Shown here: in pieces, positions 4,077 to 16,448 of the stretch
Numbering within the stretch: the stretch's first letter is position 1
Layout: each line of letters begins with the position of its first letter
Assembly (NCBI GenBank): GCA_038826135.1
Contig: JAWBON010000019.1
Location: 1-20,790 of the forward strand
Source: Candidatus Odinarchaeota archaeon
Lineage (GTDB): Archaea > Asgardarchaeota > Odinarchaeia > Odinarchaeales > Odinarchaeaceae
Reading direction: 5' to 3'
DNA: 20,790 bases
Program-made: the position numbers and the translations under genes
Notes under the pieces: model-generated
What the model saw: the letters and a program-made list of their open reading frames with translations, nothing else
Told to the model about the DNA's origin: nothing
The model's database searches: none

Positions 4077-4775
4077 TTGAAAATCTTAATCACAGGAGCT
4101 ACTAGAGCTGGTAAAAGCACTTTAATAAGAACTCTGACAAACGGGAAGAGCATAAGTGTTGATAAACACGGAACCACGGTAGCGTTAGATCACGGTGTTA
4201 TAACAGTTAGAGGTATAAAACTCTACTTATTCGGTACACCCGGATTAGAGCACTTCAGTGTTTTAAGAAAGATTCTATCCGAGGGAGCGGATGGAATAAT
4301 ATTCGTAGTTGACAGTGAAGACAAGTCGAACGATAATCTTGCAAAACTCGTCTGGAGAGAGATAGCTTCACTAGCTCCAGCAGTCCCATGCATAGTCGCT
4401 GCTAATAAACAGGATAAGGCTAACGCTAGAAAACCCAGTGAATTACGCAGAGACTTGAAATTCCTCTCCGGTGTTCCCATAATCCCCACCAGCGCCAAAG
4501 ACAATTTCAATTTAAACGTGTTAGTGAACTCTATGCTAACAATATTAATAGGCGAGTTGAGCCCGCTGCTTAAAAAAATAGAGAAATACAGTGACGTGAA
4601 AGAGGGAATCAAGAAAGTCATGAACGATATGAAAATCGATTATGAGAAGATAAAATCCTATTTAAACTGGCTTGAGTACAGGGAACTTGTGGAAGTGGAT
4701 TGGGAGAAAGGCAGCTACTCTATGAGACGGGAGCTTAAAGAATTATTAGATGCTGAAAGCCCGCCTATTTTCTGA
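4077..4775 (+). CDS. Small GTPase of the MglA/CvnD-like (Ras superfamily) type with C-terminal winged-helix-like extension
   Basis: G1 GATRAGKST, switch I TTVALDHG, G3 FGTPGL, G4 NKQD, G5 SAK. Start moved from the track's 3993 to TTG 4077 (GGATGTG SD-like site just upstream, AT-rich TATA-like region 4021-4045). Confidence 0.9.
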   Translation: MKILITGATRAGKSTLIRTLTNGKSISVDKHGTTVALDHGVITVRGIKLYLFGTPGLEHFSVLRKILSEGADGIIFVVDSEDKSNDNLAKLVWREIASLAPAVPCIVAANKQDKANARKPSELRRDLKFLSGVPIIPTSAKDNFNLNVLVNSMLTILIGELSPLLKKIEKYSDVKEGIKKVMNDMKIDYEKIKSYLNWLEYRELVEVDWEKGSYSMRRELKELLDAESPPIF

Positions 4776-14125: not shown

Positions 14126-15433
14126 TTAGTCGAGTTTCAGAACCATCCTGTATCCTTCAATATCCAGCAGCCCATGCCCGCTATAGTTGAACACTATAAC
14201 TTTCTTTTCATTCCGCTTCTTAGCCTCTTTCGCAAGATCTATAGCCGCACATATAGCGTGGCTTGTCTCAGGAGCGGGAATAAGCCCCTCAGTCTCAGCG
14301 AAAAGCTTAGCACACTGATATATCTGCTCCTGCGGATAAGCGACAGATTTTATGAATCCCTCATTCCTCAACAAACTAACAGTAGGCGCTGCACCGTGAT
14401 ATCTTAACCCACCAGCGTGTATCGGAGGAGGGATAAACTCACAGCCTAAAGTGTACATTTTTATTAAAGGCGTTGTTTTAGCAGTATCACCGAAATCGTA
14501 ACGGTACTCGCCTTTTGTAAGAGACGGGCATGCTACAGGTTCAACCGCTAAAACCTCCGGGGAAGATAACTCGTTTCTAAGTATTTTACCAAGATACGGA
14601 AAACTGAACCCGGCGAAGTTACTGCCACCTCCAACACAGCCGATTAAAGAATCAGGGATAAGATCCAGCTTATTCATCTGCTCTATAAGCTCCTGACCGA
14701 TCACAGTCTGATGTAAAATAACATAGTTCAGAACACTGCCTAACGTGTACTTTGTATCCGGGTTTTTAACAGCCATCTCTATAGCTTCACTTATAGCTAT
14801 GCCTAAGGAACCTGGATGATTAGGATCCTTAGATACAAGGCTTCGACCGTAATCTGTTTTATCACTCGGAGAAGCGTAAACATCAGCCCCCAGAAGTTTC
14901 ATAATATATTTACGATACGGTTTCTGATTATACGAGCAGCGGACCATGAAAACCGTGCATTTTATACCAACCATCGCACACGCGTAAGCTAAAGCACTAC
15001 CCCATTGACCCGCCCCGGTCTCAGTGGTTAAGTTTCTCACACCCTCCTTCGCAGCATAGTATGCCTGCGCTATCGCAGTATTCGGTTTATGGCTGCCTGT
15101 CGGGGATAAATCCTCTCTTTTAAAGAATATTCTAGCAGGCGTGTTCAGTCTCTGTTCAAGTCTCTTAGCCCTGTATAGGGGGGACGGTCGACCCAGCCGG
15201 TAATAGTATTCTACCAGATCCTCAGGTATACTAATATAACGCTCCTTCGCAAGCTCCTGCTTCACACACTCCTTAGGGAAAAGATTCATCAAAGCTTCAG
15301 CTGGGATAGGCTCTTTCGAAGCAGGGTTAAGATACGGTGGAAACTCTGATCGTATATCCGCTAATATATTATACCATTTCCTAGGCAACTCATCCAATCC
15401 AAGTTGAACCTTCACATCATTCATATTAGACAT
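14126..15433 (-). CDS. trpB: Tryptophan synthase beta chain, type 2 (stand-alone TrpB2)
   Basis: 435 aa, LP.KWYNI, GSHKPNTA (PLP Lys), TETGAGQWG, GCVGGGSNFAG, PPPIHAGGLRYHG, PAPETSHAI, FNYSGHGLLD. GGAGGT SD at 15445-15440. Confidence 0.96.
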   Translation of the reverse strand: MSNMNDVKVQLGLDELPRKWYNILADIRSEFPPYLNPASKEPIPAEALMNLFPKECVKQELAKERYISIPEDLVEYYYRLGRPSPLYRAKRLEQRLNTPARIFFKREDLSPTGSHKPNTAIAQAYYAAKEGVRNLTTETGAGQWGSALAYACAMVGIKCTVFMVRCSYNQKPYRKYIMKLLGADVYASPSDKTDYGRSLVSKDPNHPGSLGIAISEAIEMAVKNPDTKYTLGSVLNYVILHQTVIGQELIEQMNKLDLIPDSLIGCVGGGSNFAGFSFPYLGKILRNELSSPEVLAVEPVACPSLTKGEYRYDFGDTAKTTPLIKMYTLGCEFIPPPIHAGGLRYHGAAPTVSLLRNEGFIKSVAYPQEQIYQCAKLFAETEGLIPAPETSHAICAAIDLAKEAKKRNEKKVIVFNYSGHGLLDIEGYRMVLKLD

Positions 15434-15503
15434 AATTCAACCTCCAAAATTTTTTAATTTTTAAAAAAATATAGAATTTATCAGCTAACCAGTGCAGTGG
15501 CTT

Positions 15504-15644
15504 CTAAGGCCACAATAACCAGCGCCAAGCCCAGATCCGGCTTAACAAAAAAGCCTCAGATGAAAAAACACTATTTAAAAACAGTTCTACTTTCAAGTAA
15601 GGGTTAACACCACTCGCGCACTGCACTGTTAAAGCTAACTCCAT
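15504..15644 (-). CDS. Putative Trp-rich leader peptide ending LLSRIWAWRWLLWP (46 aa from ATG 15644; 14 aa from TTG 15548)
   Basis: Four TGG codons at 15533, 15527, 15521 and 15512; TAG 15506-15504. In-frame starts: ATG 15644 (AAGGTG SD, 11-nt spacer), GTG 15626, TTG 15596, TTG 15548 (GAGG SD, 5-nt spacer). Confidence 0.65.
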   Translation of the reverse strand: MELALTVQCASGVNPYLKVELFLNSVFSSEAFLLSRIWAWRWLLWP

Positions 15645-15654
15645 TCCAAGGCAT
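15604..15654 (-). CDS. Putative overlapping uORF MPWNGVSFNSAVREWC (16 aa, 2 Trp)
   Basis: First ATG downstream of the trpB2 promoter, stop TAA 15606-15604. The SD is only 1 nt from the ATG, so initiation is doubtful. Confidence 0.3.
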   Translation of the reverse strand: MPWNGVSFNSAVREWC

Positions 15655-15694
15655 ACACCTTACTGAAAGATTAAAAATAAATTAAAAAATGTAG

Positions 15695-15710
15695 TATATA
15701 ATATTTTCGG
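15695..15710 (-). promoter_or_regulatory. BRE + TATA promoter for the trpB2 leader/trpB2
   Basis: CCGAAAA (15710-15704) followed by TATTATATA (15703-15695). Implies a transcription start near 15672. Confidence 0.7.
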
Positions 15711-15712
15711 TG

Positions 15713-15907
15713 TTAACTAGTTTCAAGATAGTCTTCTATAAGAATAGTTAACAATGGAATAAAACAGACAGGCAGGATCCATAAATTATCCGAAATAGTT
15801 AAAGGAATCAGTGGAAGCCTTACAAATCGTAAAATAACCGAGATTATTAGAAAAACGCTCCAACACGTTAAAATAATATAAGTATTTTTCAACTTAACCT
15901 TATCCAT
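15713..15907 (-). CDS. Small membrane protein (64 aa, about 2 TM segments)
   Basis: ATG 15907 after GGGAG. Hydrophobic stretches YIILTCWSVFLIISVIL and LWILPVCFIPLLTILI. Confidence 0.6.
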   Translation of the reverse strand: MDKVKLKNTYIILTCWSVFLIISVILRFVRLPLIPLTISDNLWILPVCFIPLLTILIEDYLETS

Positions 15908-15920
15908 AAAACTCCCTTTT

Positions 15921-16448
15921 TTAAATTGAAAGCCGCCGAATCTTATCCTCAAACTTGGACTTTAAACTATGATATTCCTCCGAGCTGATCTCGCCTGAAC
16001 TATGCCTCGAATCTAAAGAAGCAAGCAGCTCCTTGTATATTTCAAGTTCAGCTTGCCTATCATCTTCCAATTCAACCATACTAGAATTTTCAAGTTTGTT
16101 TGTCAGCTCAGCTATAATCTTATCTCTCTCCAACACCTCCGCCTTAAGAGAAGCCACTGTAGACTCTAAATTATCAATCCTGGTTAATAAATCATTTATC
16201 TGATTAAAAAAAATATCCCGTTCAGCAGGCTTTGTTTTCCCAGTAACCTCCACTAGAACAGAATCACTGGCTGGTGTAGAGCGGGGGGGTGTTTCTACTC
16301 GAGTTGAAGACGTACTACGCTTCTCCATTAAATATACTATCAAGAATAGGGTAGGAAAAAGCATCATAATAAAAAGAATCGGGCTTAATAAAATAAGTAT
16401 TAAATCAACTAATATTAGAAGCAGTAAAAATACGATAACAATAAACAA
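15921..16448 (-). CDS. Membrane-anchored coiled-coil protein with C-terminal SHOCT-like motif
   Basis: 40-aa hydrophobic N-terminus, S/T/P linker, heptad region (INDLLTRIDNLESTVASLKAEV...), and LASLDSRHSSGEISSEEYHSLKSKF. GAGGTG SD 8 nt before the TTG. Confidence 0.75.
   Translation of the reverse strand: MFIVIVFLLLLILVDLILILLSPILFIMMLFPTLFLIVYLMEKRSTSSTRVETPPRSTPASDSVLVEVTGKTKPAERDIFFNQINDLLTRIDNLESTVASLKAEVLERDKIIAELTNKLENSSMVELEDDRQAELEIYKELLASLDSRHSSGEISSEEYHSLKSKFEDKIRRLSI

Follow-up and report, generated by a model that had tools for sequence, protein, structure and literature searches.

Ribosome-mediated attenuation is the textbook case of coupled transcription and translation being used for regulation. 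In the trpL leader-peptide attenuator of Escherichia coli, a short frame with clustered Trp codons near its stop lies ahead of a Trp-synthesis gene, and the Trp-codon segment pairs with the segment just after the stop. That second segment has an alternative partner, and a U run precedes the structural gene. Candidate attenuators of this kind are found in actinobacterial trp operons, including one upstream of trpB2A in Corynebacterium diphtheriae (PMC1262725). In the factor-dependent leader-peptide attenuators mgtL-mgtA of Salmonella and tnaC-tnaA of E. coli, both Rho-dependent, the position of the ribosome on a short frame decides whether the RNA needed by the termination factor is exposed. 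In mycobacteria, polycysteine short frames, which are leaderless, act as Cys-responsive attenuators, runs of one rare amino acid codon reporting the supply of that amino acid to downstream genes (bioRxiv 10.1101/834739). In Archaea, the trpB2 gene of Methanothermobacter thermautotrophicus is put under tryptophan control by TrpY, a DNA-binding repressor acting at the promoter, with no leader RNA and no small upstream frame. As far as our full-text searches reach, ribosome-mediated attenuation has been described only in bacteria, and we found no report of an archaeal leader-peptide attenuator.

We analyzed a 20,790-nucleotide stretch of DNA (hereafter, the window) from Candidatus Odinarchaeota archaeon, an Odin-type Asgard archaeon. 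An initial annotation of its minus strand had proposed mutually exclusive helices in the leader of a trpB2 gene, with a ribosome stalled on Trp codons masking one arm and freeing the downstream segment. The observation held, as every proposed element is present: the 10-bp complement with its AA/UU extension (15630-29 with 15488-87, G15489 being bulged) and its AGCU/AGCU extension (15636-33 with 15486-83), the GUGGC/GCCAC hairpin with CCU and the UAG stop (15506-04) in its loop, AGCCA/UGGUU within 15502-15487, GGCUU at 15555-51, AAGCC at 15543-39 and GGCUU at 15531-27, and U-tracts at 15581-77 (U5), 15568-63 (U6), 15552-47 (U6) and 15469-63 (U7). The interpretation was only partly supported, as described below. 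The features of the locus, all on the minus strand, are as follows.

15695-15710: archaeal promoter, with a BRE, CCGAAAA (15710-15704), and a TATA box (15703-15695); predicted transcript start near 15671.
15658-15669: 5′ arm of helix H1 (CUUUCAGUAAGG) in the 5′ UTR, containing the Shine-Dalgarno-like AGGUG/GGGUG.
15590-15602: 3′ arm of helix H1 (CCUUACU-U-GAAAG), inside the small frame at codons 15-19 (P-Y-L-K-V).
15504-15644: small upstream reading frame of 46 codons plus UAG, ending I-W-A-W-R-W-L-L-W-P-stop.
15510-15533: Trp-codon cluster, UGG at 15533-31, 15527-25, 15521-19 and 15512-10.
15619-15649: 5′ arm of the long-range helix P1, including the AUG of the frame (15644-42) and CAGUGCAGUG (15628-15619).
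15472-15499: 3′ arm of P1 (CACUGCACUG at 15499-15490, then AGCUGAU, then AUUCUA), ending 2 nt before the U7 tract.
15497-15513: stop-codon hairpin, GUGGC (15513-09) with GCCAC (15501-15497), the last Trp codon being in the 5′ arm; it can extend to CGCUG/CACUG.
15503-15560: inner helix UCUGAGGCU (15560-52) with GGCCUUAGA (15511-03).
15463-15469: U7 tract followed by A-rich sequence, a candidate archaeal (FttA/U-tract) terminator between the small frame and the trpB2 ribosome-binding site.
15441-15445: trpB2 Shine-Dalgarno sequence, GGAGG, conserved in the aligned lineages.
14126-15433: trpB2, coding for a TrpB-like PLP-dependent enzyme of 435 aa.

The downstream gene is on the same strand and starts 70 nt after the stop of the small frame. 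Profile searches identified its product as TrpB2 (NF009057, 679 bits; TIGR01415, 635 bits; PF00291). TrpA homologues and the TrpE-type chorismate-binding domain were not found in this genome (G000, 93% complete) or in two congeners, G001 (97%) and G002 (98%, a single contig). TrpB2 is therefore probably the only Trp-forming enzyme there, which suggests that it works alone, making Trp from indole. A third congener, G003, carries trpE and trpA on one contig (C99), which could be a real operon or a binning contaminant. A sigma-70-like promoter hit upstream of the leader is better read as a BRE/TATA promoter. The organism is an archaeon, and this promoter is conserved at a fixed 264 to 283 nt from the trpB2 AUG in seven lineages. 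Sequence conservation begins about 30 nt downstream of the TATA box, from which the transcript start near 15671, and hence a leader of roughly 240 nt, is predicted.

For comparative analyses, we used the three congeners (G001 to G003), which carry the leader at 81 to 83% identity. From TrpB2 proteins of 69 to 86% identity, we obtained six more lineages by searching for contigs that encode them: L097, L098, L099/L100, L101 (cut by a contig end), L102/L103 and L104. A DNA-pattern scan of metagenome contigs for the block made of the Trp cluster and the stop hairpin found nothing, and a protein-based metagenome scan returned no TrpB2 above 68% identity. Four sequencing runs yielded only short, low-depth contigs of near-identical strains over this stretch, without transcript starts, ends or useful variants.

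In every lineage, one frame is open from a conserved UUGGA(A/C)UGG motif to a stop that directly follows a cluster of in-frame UGG codons. Tested in six lineages, the frame, although its middle has diverged, is open for 46, 46, 47, 47, 49 and 58 codons, while the other two frames carry 3 to 7 stops each. The product of the shuffle probabilities is about 1e-9, an overestimate of significance because the lineages are related. In-frame UGG clusters next to the stop occur in all ten lineages. In this genome, four UGG codons lie within the last nine sense codons, and only six places in the 1.26 Mb, over all six frames, have at least four UGG in ten stop-free codons. A second cluster of four UGG codons, NCLWRWWGLW at 4480-4510 (minus strand), lies antisense inside the GTPase-like gene at 4077-4775, in a short frame with no obvious downstream gene, and is probably due to chance. 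Among 52 other candidate Trp-ending short frames in the genome, the two that we inspected, an IWAWRWL copy on contig C4 and a WWW frame at 1070-1234 of the window, are off-frame readings inside long genes. The former (C4, 24018-24101, minus strand), the only other IWAWRWL in the genome, is an off-frame reading of the HxHND-MGLAVAN motif of an isopropylmalate/citramalate-synthase-like gene. In its other frame, the Trp-cluster DNA of the leader likewise reads DLGLALV, which is probably a coincidence.

The small frame is thus very probably translated, although its start codon is predicted and the Shine-Dalgarno-like GGUG lies 11 nt from the AUG, which is rather far. The peptide is poorly conserved outside the Trp residues, and its last residue is P, L, W, Q or H depending on the lineage. 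There is thus no TnaC-like conserved W...D...P-stop peptide, and the pattern fits a codon-sensing leader peptide rather than an arrest peptide of the TnaC type or a functional protein. A second, overlapping small frame at 15603-15653 (minus strand; AUG at 15653, MPWNGVSFNSAVREWC-stop) looks conserved as W-N/T-G-I/V-x-F in all lineages. However, its AUG becomes AUA, AUU or AUC outside the genus, so this conservation is probably at the RNA level (the UUGGAAUGG motif and the P1 and H1 arms).

We next examined the RNA structure. The whole leader folds at -77 kcal/mol (z -4.1; 0 of 200 shuffles as good), and its minimum-energy structure contains the long-range helix. By our arithmetic, a perfect 10-bp complement is expected about 0.03 times in a 240-nt RNA. 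The 10-bp helix is the core of P1, a composite helix joining 15649-15619 with 15499-15472. P1 scores -30 to -39 kcal/mol, 4.6 to 7 SD below shuffled partners, in G000 to G003 and L097; in this genome the duplex is -35 kcal/mol, about 6 to 7 SD below. These energies, like those below, are model values. In all five lineages the 3′ arm of P1 ends 0 to 3 nt before the U-tract, even in G002, where a 10-nt insertion supplies a new outer partner. On the five-sequence alignment, 86% of cells are paired, against 30 to 48% when the partner is slid. Conservation or compensation of the 10-bp repeat in relatives had been set beforehand as a test of the proposal. The core is invariant rather than compensated in the five lineages that have it, and covariation is not significant. 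In L098 the 5′ arm carries an uncompensated change, in L099 it is not complementary, and L102 and L104 have no equivalent (z near 0). As these four lineages keep the frame, the Trp cluster and the U-tract, P1 cannot be the core of the mechanism across the clade; the shared core is the Trp-codon frame, H1, the stop hairpin and the U-tract.

The stop-codon hairpin is kept in 8 of 8 lineages, with one compensatory change, AUGGC/GCCAU in L101. It extends through CGYUG/CARYG, so that its 5′ strand contains the third and fourth Trp codons. The 10-bp helix and the GUGGC/GCCAC hairpin overlap by only 3 nt (15499-97), and competition is larger with the extended form. The inner helix buries the last Trp codon and the stop, and excludes the stop-codon hairpin. 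It is present in the minimum-energy fold and still present at 75°C, and it is kept in the genus and partly in L097, with one-sided changes only. Two smaller items of the initial annotation are weak. The GGCUU/AAGCC/GGCUU either/or pair is specific to this genome, because the stretch carrying the upstream GGCUU copy varies in the congeners, and the AGCCA/UGGUU hairpin loses its first pair in all three congeners.

The best supported helix, H1, had been missed, as had the fact that the long helix runs right up to the U-tract. H1 pairs the 5′ UTR with codons 14 to 19 of the frame and encloses the start codon. It scores -15 to -22 kcal/mol in eight lineages and is recovered by RNAalifold. Eight of its 12 pairs change on both sides, and 0 of 500 shuffles reach the score. 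For instance, CUUUC/GAAAG becomes CUUCC/GGAAG in L097, and paired deletions occur in L097, L098 and L099. One arm of H1 lies outside P1 and the other inside it, so that full H1 and full P1 exclude each other. H1 is transcribed first, whereas the P1 fold is 6 to 16 kcal/mol more stable than the H1 fold in the genus and about equal to it in L097, a pattern that fits a kinetic switch. P1 survives folding at 60 to 75°C in G000 and G003.

A run of 5 to 9 U lies 28 to 46 nt after the stop of the frame in eight of the nine complete lineages; in L102, a U5 run lies 12 nt after the stop and a second one 44 nt after it. The U-tract is always followed directly by an A-tract (U7-A5-UU-A6 at 15448-15469 here, U9-A8 in L099), giving a T/A palindrome that would read as a U-tract on either strand. 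In archaea, such tracts, together with FttA/aCPSF1, end transcription without a hairpin, and FttA threads about 36 nt of nascent RNA with a U-rich part at -30 to -36 (PMC11616081; PMC8716108). A U-rich tract downstream of a putatively translated frame fits the definition of such a terminator (PMC11616081), its function here being inferred from sequence alone. A scan for terminator-like hairpins found none at the U7 tract; only the long-range P1, which closes about 120 nt, abuts it.

We therefore describe the trpB2 leader as working like the trpL-type attenuators, without placing it among them because the defining compact terminator hairpin is absent. Relative to trpL, the host is an archaeon with a BRE/TATA promoter, the frame is 46 codons long rather than 14, the alternative partner lies upstream, at the start of the frame, rather than downstream, and there is an extra covarying helix. 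Relative to the Rho-dependent leaders, the proposed logic is the same, but the factor would be FttA/aCPSF1 and the signal would be tRNA charging rather than free Trp. An aromatic-codon leader ahead of the shikimate operon in the same window has the same promoter type and a Shine-Dalgarno-like AGGUG preceding a small frame with cognate codons, followed by a U7 tract. However, the two RNAs are not alignable beyond the promoter and the AGGUG...UUGG stretch, and that leader has no significant P1-like helix (z -0.8). Upstream of TrpB2 genes in 150 other archaeal and bacterial loci, Trp clusters are no commoner on the sense strand (5) than on the antisense strand (10). The second Odin family (genomes G004 to G006, loci L091 to L093; TrpB2 55 to 56% identical) has a short leader, with a TATA-like box only about 55 nt upstream of the start and no upstream frame, and at least one of these genomes has a second TrpB2 paralogue (48% identity).

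We tentatively favor a model in which the annotated stretch is the 3′ half of a leader that senses tryptophan through a translating ribosome, the frame starting about 27 nt from the predicted transcript start. In this view, when charged tRNA-Trp is scarce the ribosome would stall on the Trp codons and cover the 5′ strand of the stop hairpin but neither P1 arm, leaving the post-stop strand free to form P1. P1 would hide the RNA next to the U-tract, weaken U-tract/FttA termination and let the RNA polymerase run into trpB2. When Trp is plentiful, the ribosome would reach the stop and cover 8 of the 10 inner P1 bases, by our arithmetic from a 30-nt footprint. H1 and the stop hairpin would then form, the RNA before the U-tract would stay single-stranded, and transcription would end before trpB2. 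What the analysis establishes is the frame, its Trp cluster, the helices with their mutual exclusion, and the geometry of the U-tract. Translation of the frame, stalling, the dependence of the fold on ribosome position, the identity of the fold that switches trpB2 on and termination as the controlled step are all inferred. In particular, the antiterminator role was assigned to P1 from physiology, as a Trp-forming gene should be on in starvation, and no data show that a helix next to a U-tract changes archaeal termination. Moreover, P1 is also the equilibrium fold of the ribosome-free RNA, so that any difference between the fed and starved states would rest on folding kinetics, and U runs are common in a genome of 38% G+C. 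The initial annotation was thus supported in that this is a trpB2 leader whose Trp codons lie in a frame very probably translated, and in that the post-stop strand has two alternative partners, one of which a ribosome on the last Trp codons would leave free to form.

In its fullest form, a leader-peptide attenuator in the Asgard lineage in which a hairpin-independent U-tract/FttA terminator is gated by a long-range antiterminator helix, itself dependent on ribosome stalling at four Trp codons, this reading is not excluded but remains unlikely on present evidence. A working example would show that the device exists with archaeal RNA polymerase and ribosomes, that it can be built on a terminator that needs no hairpin, and that coupling in these relatives of eukaryotes is tight enough to carry regulatory information. 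It would also give a defined natural template for asking whether RNA structure or a nearby ribosome modulates FttA-dependent termination, the ribosome question being listed as open by the authors of the FttA structure (PMC11616081).

Among the alternatives, all of which we consider unlikely, the Trp-codon frame might regulate trpB2 without these helices, for example if a stalled ribosome protects the mRNA from 5′-to-3′ decay, as stalled ribosomes stabilize erm mRNAs in bacteria, or changes ribosome traffic. P1 and the other helices would then only stabilize or package the leader in a thermophile. The frame, the Trp cluster and the U-tract are indeed conserved far beyond P1. We also masked ribosome footprints at each Trp codon or at the stop in the folding model, and this did not change the predicted accessibility of the trpB2 ribosome-binding site in a consistent direction, or free it, in any lineage. 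In contrast, the covariation of H1, the conservation of a stop hairpin built from Trp codons and the tracking of the U-tract by the P1 end across an insertion argue for specific structural roles.

About as unlikely, and the main rival for the role of P1, is the same set of parts with opposite roles, P1 and the U-tract acting as a bacterial-type intrinsic terminator with a very large loop. Read-through would then occur when ribosomes occupy a P1 arm, either a queue behind a ribosome stalled on the Trp codons covering the 5′ arm or a ribosome at the stop covering the 3′ arm. The geometry is that of a terminator, with a stem ending 0 to 3 nt before a run of 5 to 7 U in five lineages, and the untranslated RNA folds into P1, as in bacterial "superattenuation". 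By our arithmetic, four ribosomes spaced 30 nt apart behind a stall at the first Trp codon would reach the 5′ arm. However, a single ribosome stalled on the Trp codons favors P1, which would switch a Trp-forming gene off during starvation, and the queue needs several initiations before the polymerase has travelled 70 nt. In addition, the base of the stem is A/U-rich and melts in the model at 75°C in G000, and archaeal termination does not need hairpins.

It is very unlikely that the frame encodes a small Trp-rich protein with its own function, merely cotranscribed with trpB2. Its length is conserved at 46 to 47 codons in seven lineages, and a source annotation called a 47-aa gene at this place in L099. 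However, the peptide diverges strongly outside the Trp cluster, much of its apparent conservation is explained by H1 and P1, and a search for homologues of the 46-aa peptide found none. Least likely is an RNA-only sensor (a divergent T-box-like or riboswitch element, or a protein-binding site) with the UGG triplets conserved as RNA, since, although conservation within the genus covers all three codon positions and the overlapping frame (W-N-G-I-x-F-N) appears conserved as well, showing strong constraint at the RNA level, the triplets stay in frame with each other and with a nearby stop in L102 and L104, whose surrounding sequence differs, the frame is kept open, and no Rfam 15 family matches, T-box (RF00230) included, at the gathering score over the whole window or at E up to 10 over 15350-16000, beyond chance-level hits.

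The best of these hits (E 0.074), to a CRISPR-repeat model, lies upstream of the promoter. It corresponds to an inverted repeat, GUUAACUA...UAGUUAAC (15709-15755, minus strand), directly upstream of the BRE, which is not conserved in the congeners.

Sequestration of the trpB2 ribosome-binding site was also considered and rejected as the main mechanism. At 37°C the model pairs GGAGG with a pyrimidine stretch, either the 5′ end or CCCUCU before the U-tract, but, besides the failure of the footprint masks to free GGAGG in any lineage, these pairings vanish at 60 to 75°C in the close lineages. A pyrimidine element complementary to GGAGG (CCCUCU, CCCCCUCUCUC or CCCUUU) precedes the U-tract in most relatives (loci L003, L004, L002, L098 and L099), and the predicted duplex beats shuffles in two lineages only. 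This genome has only UUCU at that place (15476-15473).
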